DNA of 53,315 bases from a virus. Its lineage: Duplodnaviria; Caudoviricetes. The notes below the pieces were generated by a model. That model saw only the letters and a program-made list of their open reading frames with translations, was not told the DNA's origin and made no database searches. Positions 3,725 to 53,315 of this stretch are shown here, piece after piece. The stretch's first letter is position 1, and each line of letters starts with the position of its first letter. A program made the position numbers and the translations under genes. Location: positions 1-53,315 of IMG/VR virus record IMGVR_UViG_3300023278_000762, one strand, 5' to 3'.

Positions 3725-5293
3725 ATGGAATTTAACTTACCAAGTCAAATAGTAAAAAATCTAGACTTCGGAGACGAAGCTAGAAACAAGATATTGTCAG
3801 GTGTCTATAAATTATCCGACGCAGTGAAGTCCACATTAGGAGCTTCTGGAAAATGCGTTATATATGAAGACGCAATGGGCAGACCGGTGATAACAAAAGA
3901 CGGAGTAACCGTTGCAGAAAGCGTAGTCTTAATAGACCCGGTTGAGAATATAGGTGCTACTTTAATAAAAGAATCAGCTAATAACACAGTGCGTGAAGCA
4001 GGAGACGGTACTACTACAGCTACCGTCCTTGCCACCGCTATACTTTCTGGTTTAAGTAATCATAAAGGCAAAGAAAAAATTAGAGATGTTAAAGAAGGTG
4101 TTAACAACGCAGCCAAAGAAGTTGCTGAATACTTAGAGAAATCAAGTACACCTGTAGAAGGAGAAATGTTAAAGCAAGTTGCATACATTAGTTGCAACAA
4201 CGATTCGATTCTTGGAGACAAAATTGGTGAAGCTTTTCAAAAAGTTGGTAAAAACGGAGTGGTCTTAATGGAGGATTCCGAAACAAGTGAAACTTATGTA
4301 GACTTTGTTGAGGGAACGCAATTTCCATCAGGTATAAAATCACAGCATTTACTAACAGACAAAGACAAAGGCACAGCGGTTTTAGATAACCCATACGTTT
4401 TAATTGTTGGATCCTCAATACCTAACATCAGAAGAATACAAAGTATATTGGAGCATGTAGTAAAGACGAAAAGATCATTACTAATCATTGCAGACATGGA
4501 CCAACAGCCGTACGCTACATTATTAGCTAATAAGGTTAAAGGTAACATTAAAGTAAATATTGTTGATTTACCCGGGTTTGGACCAACAAAGAGCGATACA
4601 ATAGAAGACTTAGCTATATTAACTGGCGCTACGGTCATTAACGAGGAGTTAGGGGACGATTTAGATCTAATAGACCCTAATGTACTAGGGGCAGTTATAA
4701 AGTCCGTTACAGACAGTAAAAACACAACCTTGCAAATTGGAGAAGTTAATAAAGATTTAACTAAAAGAATTGCTGAAGTAGAAAAAAAGATTGACAAAGA
4801 ATCAAACGCTTACATAAAGAAAAGAATCGAGCAAAGATTATCAATGCTAACTGGTAAAGTTGGTGTTGTTTATGTAGGAGCTAATTCAGCTGTCGAATTA
4901 AAAGAAAAAAAAGATAGAGTAGAAGACGCTATCCACGCTACAAAAGCAGCTTTGCAAGAAGGTATTGTAGCAGGAGGTGGTATTGCTTTGTTAAATGCTT
5001 CTCAAAGCATTAAAGCTAAGAATGAAGGTTATAACATTTTACTAGAGGCTATTAAAGCACCTTATAAAACTATCTTAGAAAACGCGGGTTATTCGAATAA
5101 ACAAGAACCTCAAGGTGGAATCGGATTCGGGTACGATGTTACCTGTGGATGCGAAAGACAAATGGTTAGCAGCGGTATTATAGATCCAGTACTAGTAACA
5201 AAGTCAGCGCTTAAAAACGCGGTGAGTGTTGCTACTACTATAATTTCAGCTGATTGTATAATTTCAAATGTAAGATCTCTTGAGGGCAATTAA
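3725..5293 (+). CDS. groEL: Phage chaperonin GroEL (Cpn60)
   Basis: ITKDGVTVA, AGDGTTTATVLA, ELKEKKDRVEDA, GIVAGGG and IIDPVLV motifs; no GGM tail. Confidence 0.97.
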   Translation: MEFNLPSQIVKNLDFGDEARNKILSGVYKLSDAVKSTLGASGKCVIYEDAMGRPVITKDGVTVAESVVLIDPVENIGATLIKESANNTVREAGDGTTTATVLATAILSGLSNHKGKEKIRDVKEGVNNAAKEVAEYLEKSSTPVEGEMLKQVAYISCNNDSILGDKIGEAFQKVGKNGVVLMEDSETSETYVDFVEGTQFPSGIKSQHLLTDKDKGTAVLDNPYVLIVGSSIPNIRRIQSILEHVVKTKRSLLIIADMDQQPYATLLANKVKGNIKVNIVDLPGFGPTKSDTIEDLAILTGATVINEELGDDLDLIDPNVLGAVIKSVTDSKNTTLQIGEVNKDLTKRIAEVEKKIDKESNAYIKKRIEQRLSMLTGKVGVVYVGANSAVELKEKKDRVEDAIHATKAALQEGIVAGGGIALLNASQSIKAKNEGYNILLEAIKAPYKTILENAGYSNKQEPQGGIGFGYDVTCGCERQMVSSGIIDPVLVTKSALKNAVSVATTIISADCIISNVRSLEGN

Positions 5294-26803: not shown

Positions 26804-29800
26804 ATGGCAAATATAGATCCAATATACAAGTTAAACGGAAAAGAGTTTACTAAAGAGCAACTGGAAGCTTCGGCTAGTTACCATTCTTTAAGCTTCGATG
26901 ACTATGTGTCTTCAAGAAACTTTGAAATAATACAACCCGAGGATTTTCAAAACGGAGCTGCGGAAAACAATGCACCTGTGGTTCCAAAAAACAATCAAGC
27001 ATTAAACAATGGGGGTTCAGTTTCGGAAAATGGTTCTTCGGACTTACCAGGTAACCTAGAATTTGGAGAAGCTGTAGACTTTGACTTCAACAACCCATAT
27101 TCAGAACCGAAAAAAGAAAGAAGATACATTCAGTTTAAAAGCGGTAGAGTATATGAAGACACTTATTTAAGTGAACTTGAAGAAAACCCTACAGATGAAT
27201 ACAATAGAGAAAAACCAAAAACATTTGAAGAGTATGCAGAGCAAATGGGTGGAAGCTCTTCTAGTATACGAATATATAAGCCAGATACTTTTGTAAAAGA
27301 ACAAAAGTCTGTAGATGCTAGAGTTATTGAGGCTATAAACTCAAAGTTTGAACAAACTGAAGAGCAAAAGCTAGAGAAGAGAGCCAAAGCTGAGGAGATG
27401 TTTGTGCCTCAAGCAGATAGACCTACTCATATGGTATTTACAGGTGATTATAGCCCGCCTGAGTCAATTGTAACTAAGAACGAGGATTACGACAAGTATG
27501 TTGGAATAGCTAAAAATAAATTAGGTAACAACGCTTCGGAAGATGAAATATTATCTGTTGCTAAAAACTTATATGTAGACGCAAGTGTAAAACCTCAAAT
27601 AGCAAAAAACATCGAGCAAAGTTTAAAAGACGGAGCTTATGACCAAGGTAGTAAAGATTTTTTAAACGAAGCAGACAGTGATTTTATTAAAAAGGCTGCA
27701 GCAAGAGAATATAAAACTAAAAACAAAGCGCAACAAGCAAATGTAGCCAAGCTCGAAAGCATGGGTGTTTTAATGAAAGCAACCATAGCTGAAATGGAAG
27801 CTTTGCAAAAACAATCATATAGCCTAGATACATTTGATGCGGAGGCAGCGAGAGAAAGATACAAATATCTTCGATCAACGCTAGAAGTTGCATCAGAAAA
27901 CTACAATGAGTTTTACAACAACTCTTATCTTGTGGTAAATGAAGAGCTGGAAGGTTTGGCTGACATCGTTGATGTTACTAAAAGAGCATATGGTATTGGA
28001 AATGTTCTAGCTGCAAATGTAGTAGCTACAACAAGTGAGCTAATCGGAGGTGCTTTAAAAGCTCCAGAATGGCTAGGTACGATTATAGAATCTGCTATTA
28101 CAGGAGAAGAGTACAACAATACCTGGATGGCGCAAAACACCGGTATGTTATCTGAAGCTTTGTTGGATACAGAAATGATACGTGGAGCTGTTGCAAAACC
28201 GGTTGATGTTGCTGACATTGGATCTGACGGTACAAACCTTGGGTATTGGATGACTGACCTTATAGGTAATCAAATCCCAACAGCAGCAACAATGATAGCT
28301 TTTCCTGCATCATCACTGTATGTTATGGGAGCGAGTGCGGCTGGGCAAAAAGCTAACGATATGGCTGGATTAATGGAAAGTAGCGAAGCTGATTATAACA
28401 ATTGGCAAATGCTTTTAGCTCCAGCTATAGTAGGTACGCTTGAAACTGTTACTGAAAAAATAAGTCTTGGGCAATTAAAGCATGTTGGCAAAGTATTCCA
28501 AGGAAAGAATAGCGTATTAAAAGAAGCAACTGACTATATACAAAACAGAGTGCTTAACAAAAATTATTTTGTTGACGTTTTAGGAGAAGGTGCATCAGAG
28601 GGGCTTAATCAATTAGGTGGAAACATCACGGACAAGTACTTGCTTAAAGACAAAAACGTTCACATATGGGACGGTGTTGGTAATGCTGTTGCTTCTGGAG
28701 GTTTTATGAGTGGTGTTGTATACAAAGCACCATCTATAGGGGTAAAAATGCTAAATCCATTTGCATCTTCCGATTTAAAGCCAAATATCTATGCTAACAT
28801 TGTAATGCAAAATAAGTTAGCTAAAGAAATGCTTAATAAAGACATTTCCCCTAACATAAAAAGTAGTTTAAAACAAGCGTACGATAAACTTAATGAGGCT
28901 AATAACAAACTATTAAATGATCAGTTTAAGACAATTGATGCTTTAAATGACGACCAAAAAACAGAACTTATTGAAATTGACAAAGCCAAAGCTAAAGCTC
29001 TCCTCGAGCTTCAAGATATAAATGGGTTTGACAACATGAGCGACAGTGTTAAGCAAAACTTAATAGAAGGAAAAGAATCCGAAATAAATAGTCTCGCAGC
29101 AAACAAAGAAAAAATATTATCAACTGTAGGAGCTGATGCTGACGTAGCGTTAACAAAATCGTTGATTGAAGGAGCTAAAGATGGTAGTTCTGTTATGGTT
29201 TTTGAAGACGACACTAAAACAAAAGTTACAGCCGCTCAAAAACAATACGATTTCTTGATAAGTGTTGGGTTATCGGAAGCTCAAGCAGAAGCTAAAAAAA
29301 ATGACTACGGTTTGTTCGTACAAGACAAGGATGGTAATGATATATTAGTTATAAATAAAGCGTCCGCTTTAGAAGACAAAGTTGTTACTACAGGAAAACA
29401 CGAGTTTTTACACAAAGTGCTTAAGAGAGCTATTGCCAAAGACCCATCGTTAGCAGAAAATATGGGTAATATGCTTTTAACTGAAATCGCAAATAATCCT
29501 TCTATAATTACAGAAAGAGGTAAGCAAGCTATTAAACAATACAAAGAAAGAGCTGACGACGTTAATGATTCTACAACACAATCTGATTATTTTGAAGAAA
29601 TTATAACTGTTTTTGCAGAGTCAATGAATCCAGAAGCTGCTTCTCAAGCTGACACTTTTACATCTAAAATAGCAGATATAGTTAGAAGAGCTATGAACAG
29701 TTTAGGTATTAGAAATGTTAAGTTTAAAACAAGTAAAGACGTTGTTAATTTTATAAAGGATTATAATAGAGACTTCGCTTCAGGTAAATTATCAAGAACA

Positions 29801-32800
29801 CTACAAAAATTTGAAGCTGGAGAAGGGGAGGTTGTTTCAGCCGAAACAAAGTCTAGCGCTAAACAAAAACCAACAGTATTACAAACAATAAACCAATTAA
29901 TACCGGAAGGTGTTAAAACCAAAGCAGAATTACAAAAGCCTAGAGTGTTTAATCGTATATACGAAGCTACACTTGAAAACGGAGCTATAAGTAATTATGT
30001 AAAATCTCGAAGCGAGAATAAAGCTGTTTACGAAAAGGCAATAGAAAGCATTCAAGAAAGATTGATTAATTATGATCCAGCAGCTGTTCGAAAGAAAGCT
30101 AATGGACAACCAATTACTTTCGGTGAATTTATATTTGCTAACACTAACTTTGGTAAATTAGACGCTAAAAAGAAATTAGCAATTGAATCTAAAGAAGCAA
30201 AAGAAAAAACCAGTGTAGATAGTAAAGAAGCTAAACAAGTAGCGGACGTGTCAGAGGCTCCTGTTCGTGTTGCAGAAAAACCTAAGTATAAGAACTTAGT
30301 TCAAAGTAAAGTGGTCAGCACAGATGCCTTAAAAAGCATTTCAGGTAAGGTTGGGAAGATAGTTAGAACGCTTAAATCAAGAATGGATGCTAAAACATCT
30401 ATTAATAAAACTATTTCTCCGTTAATCGCTGAGATTAAGAAGGAAATGGGTAAGCAAGCTGATATCGATTTAAAGAAAGAGATTGGTGGTAAAAAAGACG
30501 ACCAGATAAAAAAGTATTTGTTAGCAAACAAGAAAGCAATTCTTGAGAACATGACAACTACATGGCTAATGCAAGCGATGCCTGGCGCAATCCAAAAGCA
30601 AGTTGATGGTAAGTTCACTTCAGATTGGAAAGGAAAGAAAATAGATAGAGAAAAAGTTAGCACAAATGCTGCTGGTAAAACATCTGGAGCAGAAATAGTT
30701 AGAAGATTACCAAATCCAAGTGTAAGTTTAGACGATGCTACCTATTTAGGGTATATTATAGACGACAAAGGCGCGCCAATTAGAGGACGTAAAGAATCTT
30801 TAGCTAAAGCAATGGCTGAAGAGATTTCTTTTGACATATTTTCTCAGCAAATAAAAGATCCCGAAAGCGATATAAGCAAAGCTTTTGAGACTAATCAAGA
30901 AAGGCTAGGTGTTGTAATAGCTGAAAACATTGTAGAGGATCTTACAAGACAAATAGATAGAGGTACAGTTAAGTTCTCTGCTAAAATAATTAATCACAAT
31001 AAAGAAAATCCAAATTTTATACCAGATTTTCTTGAAGATATGCGATCAGCTACGTTTCAGCAAATATTTAGTGAAAACTACAGGAATGGAGTTAATAGAC
31101 CTTGGTTTGATTCAGCGATAAAATACTTTGAACAAAAGTACCCTAAAGGATCAGAAGAGCGTAGCTTAACTATTAATGCTGTAAAAGATATAGCTAATGA
31201 TTTCGCAATGAAAAACAGTAATAAAAAACCTGTTGAAGTTGCTGTATTGAGAGCTGCGCAAGATCCAGAGCAATGGCAAGAGGCTTTAGATGCTGTTAAT
31301 GAAAAGGTTGAAGACGCTTTAACGCTTGGAACGGCTTACGATACTGTTGGAATGATTTACACCGGTAGAACTAATCAATTTGACGACGCTAGTCTTGATG
31401 GAATAAATGAAGCAAGATACGCTTTAAAAGCATTGATAGACTCCCTAGCCGAAAAAGGAATGACTAGGAACGAAATAAGAGCCGCTTTAAAAGATGCTTA
31501 CGTAGGTCCCGGAGGTATCGGTAAGTTTACAGTAGGCAGCAAAGACGCATTGCTAACCCTTACAGATGAAAACCTAGGAGAATTTAAAGGTGGCTCCAGA
31601 GGGGCTATTGTTTTGAATGCTACTGATTTTGACAATAACTTCCTGAAAGACGTGAAGAATGAAGGGCCTAAAGTGGTTAATGATTCTAATATTTTTAAGA
31701 AAGATTACTGGACAAAACCGACTAGTAAGTTCAATAAAATGGACTCTAAAGGACAGTGGGGTTTTCTTAATAACTTATTCAATCAAGGTATTAAAAATCA
31801 AGTAAAGCTAGAAAACACAATAGAGTCTATAAAAGATTTAGATGTTTCAGCTGCTAATAAAAGATGGTTAATAAGAGGTTTGTTCGCTGCAATGCCTGCA
31901 TTAGGTAAAGCAACATCAACAACTAGATACGTTCTTGTAAATAATGATGGTAGTTTAGTTTCTTTTGAAGAATTGAAAAGAAAAGGCTTAGCTGCTAAAG
32001 ACGATAAAGGTGTATTTGAACACACAAAACCTGCTAATAGAGTGTCAGTAGCTGCTTATGCTTATGCTATTGCACCTAGTAAGGCAACCAAAACCGCACT
32101 TGATAACGAGTTAAAGGATTTTGATTCAGCTTTGATATCTGAAAAGATGGATAAAGTTTTAGTAGGTCTAAAATTACAATCTAAAATGGGGCTTGGTTAT
32201 AAGGTAGGTACTGGGCCAATGCTTAGTAGATACAGGGAGCTTATTGCTGAACTGGATTCTAAAGGTGTTTATTTCTATGATATAAAGACAAACAAAAAGA
32301 TATTACCCGCCACAAAGTTTAATGATGCTTTTTTAGCTACAGCCAAAGCGGGATTAAAATCTTCTGCAAAAATTTCTGGCGTAACAGAAGGTGGGGCTTC
32401 TACTTTTGTACCAAACGTTAAAGGAGGGTTCAGTAAAAGTTCTACTGGACTGAAAGCTATATTTATGGTTGGTGGTCCTGGAGCTGGTAAAACTAATGTC
32501 GGTAAAGGATTACAGTTAGGTAGACGTGGTTATAAAGTAGTTAATCAAGATATTGCTTTAGAGGCTATGAAAACAGAAGTTGGATTACCAGCTAAAGAAT
32601 CTGACTATGATGCAGAGCAAAGATCTACAAGATCTAAAATTGGAGCTGCTGCTAGAAAAGCTGCTGTAGCAAAGTTTGACAAGTACGCCGACAATGGTAA
32701 CGGAATGGTTATCGACGGTACTGGAGCATCATACAATGCTACTACAAAAAAAATTAAAGCATTACAAGCTAAAGGTTTTGAGGTACATATGGTTGTAGCT

Positions 32801-35329
32801 AATACTCCTTTGTCAACAGCTATAGAAAGAAATAGAGCTAGAACAGAGAGATCATTACCAGACTTTGTAGTACAAAAAACGTACGATCAAGTTCAAGAAA
32901 GTTTAATGAAGTATAGAGAAGATTTTGGAGATCGCTTATACGAGATTAATACGGAGTCAATTAAATTCGGGGAAGCACTTCCTAGCGAATTCTTAAAGCA
33001 AGTTCACAATGGTATAAACAAAAACATTGTAACACTTAATTCGTCGGTTAAATCTAGCGTTAAGTTAAGCAAAGAGTTTAACAACATGATCGAGCGGGGT
33101 ACTGGTACTCTATCGGATGCTAAGTTTTCTAGTGTAGTAGCTAAAAGAAGAGGCGCAAGAAAAGGTAGATTTAAAGTATGGATGCCTACATCACTAGATG
33201 ACTTTAAAGGGCTAACGTCGTATGTTTTCGCAGGTAAAGGTAGACAAGGAGACGCTGATCAAAAGTGGTTTCAAGACAACTTAATAGACCCTTATTTTAA
33301 AGGTATTGCAGCTATTGAAGTTGCTAGACAGACAATGACAGATGATTTTAAAGCATTAAACAAAATGTTTAAACCTGTTGTAAAGTCTCTAGGCAAATTG
33401 ACGAAAGACGGTGATTATACTAATGATCAAGCAATAAGAATATATTTATGGGATAAAGCTGGGTACGAAATACCTGGTCTAAGTAAAAGGGATTTATCTA
33501 AGATGCTTAAGCATATAGAAAATAATCCAGATCTTAAAGCCTATGCAGATGCAGCACTAGTAATCTCAAAACAAGATAAATGGGTAAAACCAGGCTCTTT
33601 CTGGGATGCTCAAACTATATTATCTGATCTTGGTAACATGACTGAGAAGACCGGTAGAAAAGAATATATTGCTGAGTTTATTGAAAATTCAAAAGAGATA
33701 TTTAGTGTAGATAACTTGAACAAGATTGAAGCCGTATATGGCACAAGACAAGCGGATGCTTTAAAAGATATACTTTATAGAATGGAGAACGGTACAAACC
33801 GTCCTTCAGGAATGAATAAGAATGCAAATAGATTTAATAACTGGGTAAACAACTCGATTGGGTCTATCATGTTCTTCAACAGAAGATCTGCATTACTACA
33901 AACATTGTCTACTGTTAACTTTATTAATTGGTCTGATAATAATCCAGCTAAGGCTGCTTTAGCATTTGCTAATCAACCACAATTCTGGAAAGATTTTTCA
34001 ACGCTGTTTAACTCCCCTAAATTAAAGCAACGTAGATCAGGTTTAAAATCAGATATTAACGAAGCAGAGATTGCTAGTGCTGTTAAAGGCTCTAAAAATA
34101 AAGCTGTTGCTGCTTTAAGTTGGTTATTAAAGAAAGGATTTACACCAACACAAATGGCGGATAGTTTTGCTATTGCTTCAGGTGGAGCTACATTCTATAG
34201 AAATAGAGTAAATTCTTATTTAAAAGAGCAGGCACCAGACAAAGAGTTGACTAAGCAGAACAGAAAAATGACGTATGGCCCTAAGTATACTAGGGAACAA
34301 GCTGAACAAAAAGCGTTTGAGGACTTTAGTAAAATATCAGAAGAAACACAGCAATCAGGTGATCCAGCTTTAATATCATCGGATCAAGCAAGTACTGTAG
34401 GTAGAATGTTGTTGGCGTTTCAGAATACGCCAATACAGCTAAATAGATCTATAAAGAAATCTGCGCAAAACATATATAACAGACGTAGAGTTCCTGGATT
34501 AAACCAGTTTCAAAGCGATGTTACTCATTTGAGTCAGATCATTTATTACGGAGCTATTCAGAACATTATATTTTCAACGTTGCAAAACGCATTGTTTGCG
34601 CTGTTGCCAGGTTTTGATGATGAAGAGCCAACAGACGAAGAACTTGCTGCTAAGCTAGGTGAAAAATCTAATAGAATTTTAAACGGTATTATAAGTACTA
34701 CTTTAAAAGGAGGGTTTGGTATACCAGGAGCTGTTGTAGATACTATCAAAAACGTTATTCAAGAGTACAATAAGCAGGATGAAAAAGGGTTTACGGGAGA
34801 TCATACCTACACAATACTGCAAGCAGCTAACTTAGCCCCACCAATTGGTTCTAAGCTTAGTAAAATATATAAAGGAATTCAAGCTAAAAGATTCAATAAA
34901 GACGTGATTGAAAATAGAGGGTACGATGTGGTTTATGACGGTAGATTCAATATTTCACCAGCGTACTCTGTATTAGGTAACGTAGTAGAAGGTACTACTA
35001 ACTTTCCAATGGCTAGAGCTGTTGATGAATTAAACTCTATAACAGAAGCTTTTGACACAAGAAACACCGTGATGCAACGTATAGCATTAGGTTTAGGCTG
35101 GAAAGCTTGGAATGTAGGCGCAACAAACGAAGAGCATATACTTATTAAGACCAACGCTAAGTTAGATAAAAAGGAAAAGAAGAAGGAAGAAAGAGCTAAG
35201 GGAAAAAAGAAAAAAGCTAAGAAAGCAAAAGACTATAGCGATGTTCCTTTCCATAAATTACCGCCAAAAGAAAAAGCAAAGAGATTAGCTCGCAAGCGTG
35301 CAGAAATTGCTAAATCAAAAAACAAATAA
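26804..35329 (+). CDS. Giant internal virion/polyvalent protein with zincin (HExxH) and P-loop kinase (zeta-toxin/AAA_33-like) domains
   Basis: 2841 aa; HEFLH at 29399-29413 with downstream EE; GGPGAGKT at 32471-32494, VIDGT and AIERNRAR lid motif. Confidence 0.8.
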   Translation: MANIDPIYKLNGKEFTKEQLEASASYHSLSFDDYVSSRNFEIIQPEDFQNGAAENNAPVVPKNNQALNNGGSVSENGSSDLPGNLEFGEAVDFDFNNPYSEPKKERRYIQFKSGRVYEDTYLSELEENPTDEYNREKPKTFEEYAEQMGGSSSSIRIYKPDTFVKEQKSVDARVIEAINSKFEQTEEQKLEKRAKAEEMFVPQADRPTHMVFTGDYSPPESIVTKNEDYDKYVGIAKNKLGNNASEDEILSVAKNLYVDASVKPQIAKNIEQSLKDGAYDQGSKDFLNEADSDFIKKAAAREYKTKNKAQQANVAKLESMGVLMKATIAEMEALQKQSYSLDTFDAEAARERYKYLRSTLEVASENYNEFYNNSYLVVNEELEGLADIVDVTKRAYGIGNVLAANVVATTSELIGGALKAPEWLGTIIESAITGEEYNNTWMAQNTGMLSEALLDTEMIRGAVAKPVDVADIGSDGTNLGYWMTDLIGNQIPTAATMIAFPASSLYVMGASAAGQKANDMAGLMESSEADYNNWQMLLAPAIVGTLETVTEKISLGQLKHVGKVFQGKNSVLKEATDYIQNRVLNKNYFVDVLGEGASEGLNQLGGNITDKYLLKDKNVHIWDGVGNAVASGGFMSGVVYKAPSIGVKMLNPFASSDLKPNIYANIVMQNKLAKEMLNKDISPNIKSSLKQAYDKLNEANNKLLNDQFKTIDALNDDQKTELIEIDKAKAKALLELQDINGFDNMSDSVKQNLIEGKESEINSLAANKEKILSTVGADADVALTKSLIEGAKDGSSVMVFEDDTKTKVTAAQKQYDFLISVGLSEAQAEAKKNDYGLFVQDKDGNDILVINKASALEDKVVTTGKHEFLHKVLKRAIAKDPSLAENMGNMLLTEIANNPSIITERGKQAIKQYKERADDVNDSTTQSDYFEEIITVFAESMNPEAASQADTFTSKIADIVRRAMNSLGIRNVKFKTSKDVVNFIKDYNRDFASGKLSRTLQKFEAGEGEVVSAETKSSAKQKPTVLQTINQLIPEGVKTKAELQKPRVFNRIYEATLENGAISNYVKSRSENKAVYEKAIESIQERLINYDPAAVRKKANGQPITFGEFIFANTNFGKLDAKKKLAIESKEAKEKTSVDSKEAKQVADVSEAPVRVAEKPKYKNLVQSKVVSTDALKSISGKVGKIVRTLKSRMDAKTSINKTISPLIAEIKKEMGKQADIDLKKEIGGKKDDQIKKYLLANKKAILENMTTTWLMQAMPGAIQKQVDGKFTSDWKGKKIDREKVSTNAAGKTSGAEIVRRLPNPSVSLDDATYLGYIIDDKGAPIRGRKESLAKAMAEEISFDIFSQQIKDPESDISKAFETNQERLGVVIAENIVEDLTRQIDRGTVKFSAKIINHNKENPNFIPDFLEDMRSATFQQIFSENYRNGVNRPWFDSAIKYFEQKYPKGSEERSLTINAVKDIANDFAMKNSNKKPVEVAVLRAAQDPEQWQEALDAVNEKVEDALTLGTAYDTVGMIYTGRTNQFDDASLDGINEARYALKALIDSLAEKGMTRNEIRAALKDAYVGPGGIGKFTVGSKDALLTLTDENLGEFKGGSRGAIVLNATDFDNNFLKDVKNEGPKVVNDSNIFKKDYWTKPTSKFNKMDSKGQWGFLNNLFNQGIKNQVKLENTIESIKDLDVSAANKRWLIRGLFAAMPALGKATSTTRYVLVNNDGSLVSFEELKRKGLAAKDDKGVFEHTKPANRVSVAAYAYAIAPSKATKTALDNELKDFDSALISEKMDKVLVGLKLQSKMGLGYKVGTGPMLSRYRELIAELDSKGVYFYDIKTNKKILPATKFNDAFLATAKAGLKSSAKISGVTEGGASTFVPNVKGGFSKSSTGLKAIFMVGGPGAGKTNVGKGLQLGRRGYKVVNQDIALEAMKTEVGLPAKESDYDAEQRSTRSKIGAAARKAAVAKFDKYADNGNGMVIDGTGASYNATTKKIKALQAKGFEVHMVVANTPLSTAIERNRARTERSLPDFVVQKTYDQVQESLMKYREDFGDRLYEINTESIKFGEALPSEFLKQVHNGINKNIVTLNSSVKSSVKLSKEFNNMIERGTGTLSDAKFSSVVAKRRGARKGRFKVWMPTSLDDFKGLTSYVFAGKGRQGDADQKWFQDNLIDPYFKGIAAIEVARQTMTDDFKALNKMFKPVVKSLGKLTKDGDYTNDQAIRIYLWDKAGYEIPGLSKRDLSKMLKHIENNPDLKAYADAALVISKQDKWVKPGSFWDAQTILSDLGNMTEKTGRKEYIAEFIENSKEIFSVDNLNKIEAVYGTRQADALKDILYRMENGTNRPSGMNKNANRFNNWVNNSIGSIMFFNRRSALLQTLSTVNFINWSDNNPAKAALAFANQPQFWKDFSTLFNSPKLKQRRSGLKSDINEAEIASAVKGSKNKAVAALSWLLKKGFTPTQMADSFAIASGGATFYRNRVNSYLKEQAPDKELTKQNRKMTYGPKYTREQAEQKAFEDFSKISEETQQSGDPALISSDQASTVGRMLLAFQNTPIQLNRSIKKSAQNIYNRRRVPGLNQFQSDVTHLSQIIYYGAIQNIIFSTLQNALFALLPGFDDEEPTDEELAAKLGEKSNRILNGIISTTLKGGFGIPGAVVDTIKNVIQEYNKQDEKGFTGDHTYTILQAANLAPPIGSKLSKIYKGIQAKRFNKDVIENRGYDVVYDGRFNISPAYSVLGNVVEGTTNFPMARAVDELNSITEAFDTRNTVMQRIALGLGWKAWNVGATNEEHILIKTNAKLDKKEKKKEERAKGKKKKAKKAKDYSDVPFHKLPPKEKAKRLARKRAEIAKSKNK

Positions 35330-51891: not shown

Positions 51892-52315
51892 AGATTTGTA
51901 AATGATTTAATACCGCTTTCCAGTCAGGAAATTTATCTGTACCAAACTGTATTAACTCACCGTCAAACTCACCTGCTCCGTTAGCCGTTCTATCGTCGAT
52001 CAATATGTCGCCACGTAGTAGGTTTTTATGGTTAGACAATATCAACCGCTTGTGCGCAAGAGGACCTAAGTATTTACTCACCCATTGTCGTTTATGAGTC
52101 CACGAGGCAGGCATATTCCACGGTGCAGTAGATAAGATATAGACGTCAAATTCATCTGTCATACATAATTCTGCAAATGCTTCAACCGCTCCGTCGATTG
52201 GTTTGGGATTCTTGAATATGTTAGGATGCCATTTACCGTTATTTTTATCAATTTCGGATTGGAGATCGACTAATACGCCGTCCATATCTACATATACTGT
52301 TTTATTCTTGTTCAT
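51890..52315 (-). CDS. 5'(3')-deoxyribonucleotidase (HAD, NT5C family)
   Basis: VYVDMDGVL, ILSTAPW, K..W, GDILIDDR. Confidence 0.88.
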   Translation of the reverse strand: MNKNKTVYVDMDGVLVDLQSEIDKNNGKWHPNIFKNPKPIDGAVEAFAELCMTDEFDVYILSTAPWNMPASWTHKRQWVSKYLGPLAHKRLILSNHKNLLRGDILIDDRTANGAGEFDGELIQFGTDKFPDWKAVLNHLQI

Positions 52316-52505
52316 AATATCTTCTTTTTATTGACATATACATTTTTTCAACCGCTAAAAACATTACATCTTCACGTATAGCATTGTACTCATCACCGTC
52401 TTGATTAAAGTCTTCTAATTGCCAATCAACACTATCATACATTAGTTCTTTTGTAACGTCAGCTATGCCTTGAGCGATGTCATTAAGTTCTTCTAATTTA
52501 TTCAT
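52302..52505 (-). CDS. Acidic hypothetical protein
   Basis: 67-aa ORF. Confidence 0.7.
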   Translation of the reverse strand: MNKLEELNDIAQGIADVTKELMYDSVDWQLEDFNQDGDEYNAIREDVMFLAVEKMYMSIKRRYYEQE

Positions 52506-52507
52506 AG

Positions 52508-52687
52508 TTATTTTCTTATATAGGTTAGTCCTTTGTAGTTAAACCATTGACTTATTCCGTCAGTATCGTTTTCTTCATCCCACTTGAAAGCGAATGATGG
52601 AGGTAAGTTACCTACAGTATAAGGCTTGTATAGTACTTTGCCTAGTTTGATATTGTTTGTTGTTCTTTGTACTTTAATTGATTCCAT
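52508..52687 (-). CDS. Hypothetical protein, 59 aa
   Basis: Start reassigned to ATG 52687 (MESIKV) because the longer frame runs through the RNA gene. Confidence 0.7.
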   Translation of the reverse strand: MESIKVQRTTNNIKLGKVLYKPYTVGNLPPSFAFKWDEENDTDGISQWFNYKGLTYIRK

Positions 52688-52707
52688 ATTGTTTATTTTT
52701 AAATTAG

Positions 52708-52785
52708 TGGAGGTGGAGAGAATCGAACTCTCTTCCGCAATAGTTCCATATAGGCTTTCTATCACGTCAAAACCAGGTCACCCCC
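52708..52785 (-). ncRNA. ssrA-like: Mini-tmRNA: tRNA-like domain only, no mRNA-like domain
   Basis: GGGGGUG-ACCUGGUUUUGAC-GUGAUAG-[15 nt]-CUAUUGC-GGAA-GAGAG-UUCGAUU-CUCUC-CACCUCC-A: 7-bp acceptor stem with G3.U70, A discriminator, stemless D-loop, helix 2a, T-arm. Confidence 0.85.
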
Positions 52786-52789
52786 GTGT

Positions 52790-53065
52790 GCTACAAGCTA
52801 GGGTAATAACTATTGAGTGTTTTTAGTGGAGGGCTAAGAACCTCATACACTTGCATTATCACTCGCATTACTACTCGATACTAACTTGTAGCTACTAGCA
52901 ATTCACTTATGTGATTTAGGTACCGCTCCTCGCGGTATCTTTACAGCATTCGCCCACCTAAACCCTAATTAAGCTACTCGTCTAGTTTATTATAGGAAGC
53001 GTGATCGGCGTCTAATACATTTTCGTCGTTAGATATACCGGCCGGTCCGCTAATGTTTGCTTCCT
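52790..53065 (-). ncRNA. Structured non-coding RNA region (three stem-loop domains)
   Basis: Stems 52790-52801/52881-52892, 52913-52921/52956-52964, 52921-52937 and 52994-53000/53059-53065; mismatches read as G.U on the - strand. Confidence 0.6.
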
Positions 53066-53077
53066 TATTACATATAT

Positions 53078-53099
53078 ATTATCGATCGGTGATCGTATT
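53078..53099 (-). promoter_or_regulatory. Phage promoter-like motif, copy 4, upstream of the ncRNA cluster
   Basis: AATACGA-tcaccga-TCGATAAT, 12 nt before the first stem. Confidence 0.75.
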
Positions 53100-53110
53100 A
53101 TGTTTGTGTA

Positions 53111-53218
53111 TTATTTGTACCATCCGTATGTAGGCAATTTCTTGCATCTTTTTCTTTTCACACTTCCACAACTAGCAAGCATGGATCCTAGTATTATTAG
53201 TAATATTATTTTCTTCAT
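53111..53218 (-). CDS. 35-aa lipoprotein
   Basis: MKKIILLIILGSMLASC-GSVKRKRCKKLPTYGWYK; lipobox LASC. Confidence 0.7.
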   Translation of the reverse strand: MKKIILLIILGSMLASCGSVKRKRCKKLPTYGWYK

Positions 53219-53315
53219 AATATTGTTTTTAAATGGTTTTTAATTAGTTGTACATCTTCATCTGGTATGTCGCCATACTCGTCTTCTTCTCTTTGCATAA
53301 TACAATCATAGATCG
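53215..53315 (-). CDS. 3' end of a hypothetical protein (truncated by the window)
   Basis: ...IYDCIMQREEDEYGDIPDEDVQLIKNHLKTIL*; ATGA overlap with the lipoprotein gene. Confidence 0.55.
   Translation of the reverse strand, partial: IYDCIMQREEDEYGDIPDEDVQLIKNHLKTIL

Follow-up and report, generated by a model that had tools for sequence, protein, structure and literature searches.

The viral contig IMGVR_UViG_3300023278_000762 of IMG/VR, a linear record of 53,315 bases that is estimated to be 83% complete and was analysed whole (the window in what follows), contains a gap of 276 bases at positions 52790-53065. The gap lies at the upstream end of a block of minus-strand early genes, 250 bases from the contig end, and is followed by a tag-less mini version of transfer-messenger RNA (tmRNA) that is reduced to its tRNA-like domain (TLD). 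An initial annotation, made from the letters alone, had described the gap as a cassette of three structured RNA elements (i, ii and iii) with no convincing open reading frame (ORF), and the longest ORF overlapping it indeed encodes at most 26 amino acids. Here, the locus is identified as a real, conserved and uncatalogued non-coding RNA (ncRNA) locus. All of the stems listed for the three elements are present on the minus strand where they had been drawn, and the earlier structural reading is right but incomplete: the hairpin of element ii exists, but it is not free-standing and instead forms the swappable tip of a larger hairpin that had been missed, referred to here as the scaffold (Table 1).

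Relatives of the locus were gathered via the neighbouring nucleotidase gene and the first 21 nucleotides (nt) of the TLD. BLAST comparison of these revealed a 22-nt stretch just 5′ of element ii that is identical in several relatives and has differing flanks. An 18-nt core, GACGAGUAGCUUAAUUAG (52982-52965), is present as an exact match in 70 IMG/VR viral contigs, mostly of 25-70 kb, and in all 70 it is followed by a variable hairpin of 8-140 nt and then by ACAUAAGUGAAU (52912-52901 in the window) or a variant with one or two letters changed; the five contigs without the strict ACAUAAGUGAAU pattern carry a readable variant of it. A further nine contigs contain a compensated variant of the core, bringing the scaffold to at least 79 uncultured viral contigs, and 62 distinct versions of it were obtained among the relatives. 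The outer helix, P1 (52986-52982 with 52898-52894), pairs the four bases before the core and the first G of the core with bases 3-7 after GAAU. The innermost variable pair of P1 (-1/4) is A-U in 53 versions and G-C in nine, so that 62 of 62 are paired, while pair -2/5 is U-A in 42, C-G in six, G-C in five, A-U in four and unpaired in five. The third variable pair is C-G in 47 versions, U·G in three, U-A in two and unpaired in ten; the outermost is G-C in 42, A-U in three, G·U in three, U-A in one and unpaired in 13. The inner helix, P2 (52974-52970 with 52909-52905), joins GCUUA to UAAGU, its first pair being G·U in 57 versions and G-C in five. A degenerate scan of viral contigs in which the four inner bases of P2 were left free on both sides returned 57 contigs, 48 with CUUA/UAAG and nine with GUUA/UAAC, and not one with only half of the helix changed.

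Alignment of 29 sequences (A4), namely the window and all distinct versions with tips of no more than 40 nt, gave 92.8% paired cells, compared with 21-40% when the partners were slid, and in nine of the 14 pairs both sides change. For covariation the alignment scored 0.382, versus 0.126 ± 0.016 for shuffled alignments, none of 500 shuffles reaching the observed value. All three predicted helices of the scaffold covary. They enclose two invariant internal loops, one between P1 and P2 (ACGAGUA opposite GAAUNG) and the other above P2 (AUUAG opposite ACA), and the core of the P1-P2 loop reads G-AGUA-G opposite U-GAA-U in each of the 62 distinct scaffolds. In the consensus of loop-E and sarcin-ricin motifs, AGUA stands opposite GAA and is flanked by base pairs; the P1-P2 loop appears to bear a signature of this type, at the level of sequence signature. 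A covariance model built from A4 (R1) scores the window site at 72.4 bits (E 1.6e-15), a match by construction as the window is in the seed, and the next best site in the window reaches only 16.7 bits (E 0.07), so the scaffold is single-copy. R1 also detected the scaffold, at 61.6-79.2 bits, in eight of 25 related loci that had not been fetched with the scaffold word. The hairpin described by R1, comprising P1, the invariant loop, P2, the AUUAG/ACA loop and a variable tip, is proposed as a new RNA family.

Table 1. Features of the ncRNA locus and its surroundings in the window
Feature	Positions	Strand	Description
Promoter-like motif GATAATATATAT	53072-53083	-	One of five minus-strand copies, in the early-gene half of the contig
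Element i	52994-53065	-	72-nt stem-loop domain, AGGAAGC 53065-53059 / GCUUCCU 53000-52994, enclosing UCUAA/UUAGA
Scaffold hairpin	52894-52986	-	About 93 nt; P1, loop, P2, loop, tip
Element ii (scaffold tip)	52913-52964	-	GGUUUAGGU 52964-52956 / ACCUAAAUC 52921-52913, enclosing UACCGC-GAGGA-GCGGUA
Rod iii	52790-52892	-	Closing helix GCUACAAGUUAG 52892-52881 / CUAGCUUGUAGC 52801-52790
Linker ACAC	52786-52789	-	4 nt between rod iii and G1 of the TLD
Tag-less mini-tmRNA (TLD only)	52705-52785	-	RF00023 match

The tip carried by the scaffold in the window, element ii, is a three-way junction consisting of a 9-base-pair (bp) stem, a small hairpin (GGC-GAAU-GCU) and a second hairpin (ACCGC-GAGGA-GCGGU). 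When its 11 distinct copies were aligned (A1), 92.9% of cells were paired, against 30-42% in slid controls, four of 17 pairs changed on both sides and the covariation score was 0.248, compared with 0.153 for shuffled alignments and with 0/500 shuffles reaching it. For example, GGC-GAAU-GCU of the window is GGU-GUAU-ACC in the relative L084, and the apical stem ACCGC/GCGGU is ACCA/UGGU in other copies; the strand between the two hairpins, GUAAAGAU, is nearly invariant and the apical loop varies. The element is not tied to one holder. Eight of the 11 copies sit on the scaffold and L120 provides a stem of its own, while in L104, L164 and the duplicates L115 and L151 the element caps helix 2 of a TLD gene. 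The copies in the TLD genes of L104, L115 and L151 are 98% identical to the window over 47 nt. Compensatory changes have preserved both element ii and the scaffold on which it sits.

Element iii had been described as a bubbled rod of about 100 nt, and it is present as such, ending 4 nt before G1 of the tmRNA-like unit; what had escaped notice is that modules ii and iii both recur inside the tmRNA-like genes of relatives. The rod begins with a 12-bp closing helix, followed by a 6-nt bulge (UAUCGA), an 8-bp helix, a 2x4 loop and GAGUG/CACUC, and its upper part consists of an A-rich 8x5 loop, AGUG/CACU and a variable apex (the GAGG/CCUC hairpin). A search with an 18-mer from the rod core found 13 more loci, which with the window and the earlier loci gave 13 distinct copies: six inside TLD genes (of the GGGCGUG/CACGUCC type), four stand-alone and three on other stems. 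The stand-alone rods, in the window, L159, L164 and L169, share the same 12-bp closing helix and are separated from the TLD by 4 nt, which read ACAC or AUAU in the three relatives. In the rod alignment (A3) 98.3% of cells are paired and the carrying or closing helix covaries in five of six pairs. The UAUCGA bulge and the 2x4 and 8x5 loops are constant save for one U/G position in the 8-nt strand, and in one diverged copy, that of L133, GAGUG/CACUC is replaced by GAGUA/UACUC. Compensatory changes have likewise preserved the stem on which rod iii is carried.

A first MAFFT alignment set the rod apex opposite the T-arm of relatives, as though the apex were a decayed T-arm, and many tRNA-like genes lie nearby, both of which would fit a locus made of decayed tRNA or tmRNA remnants, or a chance fold with no function. 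The T-arm alignment proved to be artefactual, since the rod is a conserved module in its own right with the same apex in L133, and drift is excluded by the covariation and by an 18-nt core that is exact in 70 contigs; such an origin is scarcely credible. Separately, a 20-nt loop motif, GUGAGGGAUCGUUAUGAACU, recurs in the rod apex of L159, L169 and L173, in the scaffold tip of L117, and in L174, L084/L090 and L153, closed by differing 3-bp stems (CUG/CAG, CGG/CCG or GUG/CAU). It does not occur in the window and looks like a conserved mini-module nested inside other modules.

Element i is the first structure 3′ of the promoter motif and was found in only two other contigs, in both of which it also follows the motif directly. 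In each of these relatives the closing stem lacks its outermost pair and has G·U at one position where the window has G-C. An alternative inner helix, AUYRGYG with CGCCGAU, is also compatible with the three sequences; the initial annotation had omitted it, and the inner pairing is ambiguous. Element i is probably real, albeit weakly supported.

The minus strand of the gap folds with a minimum free energy (MFE) of -83.3 kcal/mol, compared with -65.1 ± 4.8 for 200 dinucleotide-shuffled sequences (z -3.80), and none of the 200 was as good. By itself, fold energy indicates non-random self-complementarity and proves neither that there is an RNA nor that the fold is used. It had been argued that stem mismatches which are G·U on the minus strand and C·A on the plus strand fit selection on the minus-strand RNA, and this argument is upheld, as G·U pairs are conserved within supported, covarying helices: in the first pair of scaffold P2 (57 of 62 versions, the other five being G-C), as two invariant pairs in rod iii, and in two helices of element ii. 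Since a conserved G·U would be a mismatch on the plus strand or in a DNA cruciform, the selected molecule should be the minus-strand RNA. The covariation among homologues that such selection predicts is found in the scaffold helices, in element ii and in the closing helix of rod iii. That the gap encodes a structured RNA selected on the minus strand is therefore supported by comparison of sequences, and it is very likely that its parts are real, selected RNA modules of a phage-specific family.

This family has no counterpart in the catalogues searched. No Rfam 15 family matched the cassette at E ≤ 10 when 52400-53315 was scanned with cmscan, the only match being tmRNA at the adjacent TLD, which is also the one Rfam family of the whole window, and in 28 related loci the only Rfam matches were tRNA and tmRNA. 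The cassette does not belong to the tmRNAs, as the RF00023 match lies outside it and no T-loop motif lies within; nor does it belong to the tRNAs or t-elements, having no ARAGORN gene and no Rfam tRNA match. A loose likeness of the rod to 6S RNA had been suggested, and the two do share a rod with internal bubbles, but the comparison does not hold: no Rfam 6S family, including the Flavobacteria form, matched at E ≤ 10, and rod iii is only about 100 nt long, has a largest loop of 8x5 nt and occurs in relatives as a swappable insert of TLD genes. Among GenBank phage records, blastn with 716 nt of the locus gave no match, and the sole match to the minimal scaffold was one of 19 nt at E 1, as chance would give. 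In 185,579 bacterial and archaeal species genomes, the 18-mer core matched twice, each time without the 3′ half and in line with chance. Every scaffold detected lies in a contig of an uncultured virus. No paper describing the scaffold, rod iii or element i was found in the literature, supplements being outside the scope of that search.

The tip of the scaffold is dispensable, as L127 and L160 carry only GGGAAACC in its place, and an identical tip is found on two compensated scaffold variants, L112 and L201. In L214, L219 and L220 the tip is a minihelix made of an acceptor stem and a T-arm, a tRNA-like fold nested in the scaffold and so the reverse of the tips found inside TLDs. Nested placement that disregards context (in scaffolds, TLD helices and stand-alone stems) would be expected of selfish or neutral insertion modules, that is, mobile palindromic hairpins that insert into the exposed loops of RNA genes with high expression and are simply tolerated there. 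The shared tip of L112 and L201, the minihelix tips, the loop motif nested in the rod apex of L159, L169 and L173, the 8-140 nt range of tip lengths, a scaffold that works without a tip and the palindrome CUAG at module borders could all be read in the same way. Such insertions would explain the tips but not the invariant core of the scaffold. Furthermore, each module is single-copy in the 53-kb contig and absent from its coding and remaining intergenic DNA, target-site duplications were not seen, and compensatory divergence that includes G·U pairs keeps the helices, which points to selection on the RNA fold. Selfish insertion is accordingly regarded as improbable.

Two further features accompany the scaffold in relatives. 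A paralogous scaffold-like hairpin comes after the first scaffold in L007, L142 and L153; it begins AUGAG(A/U)GGUYUAAUCAG where the main scaffold has ACGAGUAGCUUAAUUAG, possesses its own pairing partner and is missed by R1 in L007. In most relatives a Cys-rich ORF of 62 amino acids (MYCKCG...; for example L133:780-968), which matches no Pfam family, sits immediately 5′ of the scaffold, with a stop codon that adjoins or overlaps P1.

The unit downstream of the cassette matches the Rfam tmRNA model RF00023 at 69.4 bits (E 5e-25, gathering score 47). The match spans model positions 1-374, of which 304 are replaced by an 11-nt connector, with no message and no pseudoknots. A 7-bp acceptor stem with G3·U70, a T-arm and a discriminator A are present, the tail is CUA rather than CCA, and there is no tag reading frame; on these sequence features the unit is a TLD-only mini-tmRNA of the alanine type. 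ARAGORN called no gene in the window, the mini-tmRNA included. In relatives up to three tRNA-like units follow the scaffold, including TLDs of 68-149 nt with G3·U70 and one tRNA-Met, all with non-CCA tails. A second tmRNA-like unit ("type A") lies just 3′ of the scaffold in L003, L004, L005, L041, L087, L092, L093, L099, L104 and others. Its T-arm is perfect, its 3′ strand reads CUAGUUA and ends in a CAAA tail, and a D-loop-like GUNNGG is present, but there is no clear G3·U70; the unit is absent from the window and is called by neither ARAGORN nor Rfam. As the palindrome CUAG occurs in every candidate strand, the register of its acceptor stem is ambiguous. Six other viral contigs (L082, L083, L085, L086, L088 and L089) carry tmRNA genes of full length (373-378 nt, with an encoded CCA); at least L082 also has a tRNA gene cluster, and the first 21 nt of all six genes are identical to the mini-tmRNA of the window. 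The initial annotation had suggested that the cassette may supply several mimics of host RNAs. In the only test of mimicry made, the idea that the modules were copied from tmRNA bodies was rejected, as BLAST against these six genes returned the shared 21-mer and words of at most 13 nt.

Upstream of the cassette, the motif GATAATATAWAT stands among six matches in the window (at most one mismatch), compared with 2.2 ± 1.45 expected; five minus-strand copies precede early gene groups, and the motif also precedes the RNA locus in relatives. The phage promoter of the initial annotation can thus be retained as an over-represented motif that is kept in relatives, though at the level of a motif only. 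A scan with the sigma-70 consensus gave five promoter-like sites versus 4.2 expected, which is no signal. No minus-strand terminator-like site was found in 52300-53315, where there is one on the plus strand, and the next ORF begins 17 nt past the end of the TLD match. Sequence archives meanwhile hold a hint, and only a hint, that the cassette is transcribed. Small shares of 52650-53150 occur in 23 runs from 14 studies, of which four RNA-library runs from four studies were examined in detail; all four are marine and contain contigs on parts of 52696-53048 with at least 88% likeness. These include contigs of 190 nt on 52752-52894, 191 nt on 52894-53048 (depth 15.8), 100 nt on element i (depth 89), 110 nt on 52895-52985 with one differing letter and 165 nt on 52696-52747, as well as an 833-nt contig in which other sequence links the TLD and the scaffold core. 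The contigs derive from relatives with other module combinations and have loose ends at 52894/52895, the border of scaffold and rod. No contig in the four runs fell on 52400-52695 or 53049-53315, an absence that carries no evidential weight.

The best explanation overall, to which we assign a probability of about one half, is that the cassette forms the 5′ part of a phage ncRNA array whose recombining modules are co-transcribed, released by RNase P and act in trans. The array would be transcribed from the upstream phage promoter motif and would comprise element i, the scaffold with tip ii, rod iii, the TLD and small ORFs; a single transcript is inferred because the promoter motif lies upstream, there is no minus-strand terminator-like site, and the TLD and an ORF follow closely. 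In tRNA processing generally, RNase P acts at the 5′ end and a 3′ tRNA-processing enzyme cuts after the discriminator. Cleavage by RNase P at 52786/52785, at G1 of the TLD, would free the cassette as one or more stable small RNAs, and the 3′ enzyme would cut after the TLD discriminator, with helices and tRNA-like units giving stability and marking the cuts. A polycistronic precursor cleaved by RNase P at the TLD is plausible. The freed RNAs may then act in trans, with the invariant internal loops binding a conserved protein or ribonucleoprotein (RNP). The invariant loops, the dispensable tip and the single-copy state together argue for a conserved partner that recognises these RNAs specifically, and RNAs that bind such a protein or RNP in trans are tentatively favoured as the mode of action, with a cis-acting leader next.

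As a leader, the cassette could be an antiterminator of the put/nut type that modifies RNA polymerase, a 5′ stabiliser or a set of processing marks for the early operon. HK022 put RNA, which forms stem-loops just downstream of early promoters, provides a precedent. The cassette stands directly behind the promoter motif and ahead of a long run of minus-strand early genes with no terminator-like site on that strand in 52300-53315, and the absolute conservation of the internal loops would suit a conserved host target such as RNA polymerase. In most relatives, however, a small ORF precedes the scaffold, which lies approximately 270 nt from the promoter motif, and as many as three tRNA-like genes stand between the scaffold and the next ORF, an arrangement that looks like an RNA gene cluster and not a leader. 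Modules also occur inside TLD genes, which are expected to be excised from the transcript, and no downstream terminators that would need to be bypassed were identified. A leader function is rather unlikely on this balance.

Several observations weigh against a released, trans-acting array. Neither the transcript end nor its strand, processing site or binding partner was observed in the analysis, and the RNA-library data are assembled contigs that may contain DNA and whose ends match module borders between phages, not RNA ends. R1 found no scaffold in L007, L164 or L169, which are among the related loci that have the mini-tmRNA or the rod, and the scaffold is therefore not essential to the array. 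The Cys-rich ORF has no match in the window, in L159 (the closest relative, 100% complete) or in the L174 record, an empty result that is weak evidence; without a match in the window and L159, it was rejected as an obligatory partner of the scaffold. Element i is represented by three sequences, and the rod core helices (8-bp and 5-bp, with two G·U pairs) never vary in the sample, an invariance that is uninformative because the copies were fetched with an exact 18-mer from that core. Finally, the plus strand folds equally well (MFE -82.3, z -3.92), so fold energy cannot pick the strand.

Equal folding of both strands would also be expected of a DNA-level element, such as a replication origin, a packaging site or a recombination hot spot of inverted repeats near the contig end. 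The locus is 250 bases from the end of a linear record that is 83% complete, and its module borders resemble recombination joints. In the 50-70 kb contigs of relatives, however, the locus is internal, it is always co-oriented with tRNA-like genes, and its conserved G·U pairs would be C·A mismatches on the other strand or in a cruciform, making a role as DNA very improbable.

The trans-acting array can be extended to a more ambitious proposal, which we consider unlikely, namely a combinatorial RNA display system in which holders (the loop-E scaffold hairpin and the alanine-type TLDs) carry interchangeable, aptamer-like tips. Tips would be shuffled by recombination at short CUAG palindromes, and SmpB and EF-Tu could take the TLD holders to stalled ribosomes. 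Tips and invariant loops might then serve as sponges or adaptors for host proteins of ribosome rescue, RNA decay or anti-phage defence, the window displaying one combination, with tip ii on a scaffold, rod iii free and the TLD bare.

The tRNA gene cluster of phage T4 encodes two small stable RNAs, species 1 and 2, whose function is unknown; they are transcribed together with the tRNAs and excised by tRNA-processing enzymes, a logic like that envisaged for the cassette, but they are not known to be built of exchangeable modules. The tmRNA of mycobacteriophage DS6A is described as consisting of the TLD only, without a coding sequence, and as inhibiting the endogenous tmRNA in E. coli (PMC4131195, PMC11915505). 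A phage tmRNA reduced to its TLD is the kind of unit that lies 4 nt downstream of the cassette, and in relatives modules ii and iii occupy the helix that replaces the message. The cassette itself, in contrast, has neither acceptor stem nor T-arm and matches no tmRNA model, and the DS6A accounts drawn on, which allow comparison by description only, mention no scaffold hairpin or exchangeable tips. In plant mitochondria, t-elements are reported to be tRNA-like folds within longer transcripts that act as cut marks for RNase P and RNase Z (PMC1920247). The punctuation logic, as reported there, is the same as that envisaged for release of the cassette; t-elements are the marks themselves, whereas the cassette is structured RNA between a promoter and a mark. 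Bacterial Y RNAs and YrlA are presented as modular ncRNAs with a tRNA-like domain and a protein-binding stem that also occur in phages (PMC4201824). The cassette differs from them in having no Rfam match at E ≤ 10, and none of the 36 window ORFs scanned against PHROGs was a Ro60-type gene, no search having been aimed at Ro60. In engineered tRNA scaffolds, as outlined in PMC3753655, a structured RNA of foreign origin is embedded in a tRNA-like holder for stability in cells. Relatives with ii or iii inside a TLD have the layout reported for these scaffolds, which are man-made, and the natural holders would only by inference share their role in stability.

The contig itself belongs to an uncultured marine phage whose host is probably a member of the Flavobacteriia, because its terminase is closest to those of phages infecting Flavobacterium, Cellulophaga and Tenacibaculum, the nearest named phages. 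Identity of the terminase is 45% to the listed Flavobacterium phages and 63% to one other record. PHROGs matches elsewhere in the contig include terminase, portal, tail fibre, ribonucleotide reductase, thymidylate synthase, primase/helicase, DNA ligase, a sigma factor and a GroEL-like chaperonin, the last encoded at 3725-5293 on the plus strand (PHROG 5725, E 9e-135). An ORF of 2841 amino acids in the structural block (26804-35329, plus strand) has as its only recognised part a polynucleotide-kinase-like region at residues ~1884-2055. The small ORFs adjoining the RNA locus matched no PHROGs or Pfam family. One of them, of 67 amino acids (52302-52505, minus strand), lies downstream of the locus in the window and has homologues upstream of it in relatives (L133:568-762 and the L159 flank), and gene order around the RNA array has therefore been rearranged between relatives.

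Phage ncRNAs other than tRNAs are poorly charted, and this locus provides a structured RNA that is specific to phages, covaries unusually cleanly, lacks an Rfam entry and has parts that are exchanged with tag-less tmRNA-like genes. Should the modules prove to be only processing or stability elements, they would still account for the several hundred bases without genes that these phages keep in a tightly packed early region. If instead they bind host factors, they would represent a new class of RNA-based tools for host takeover or counter-defence, and a natural counterpart of the tRNA scaffolds of biotechnology.

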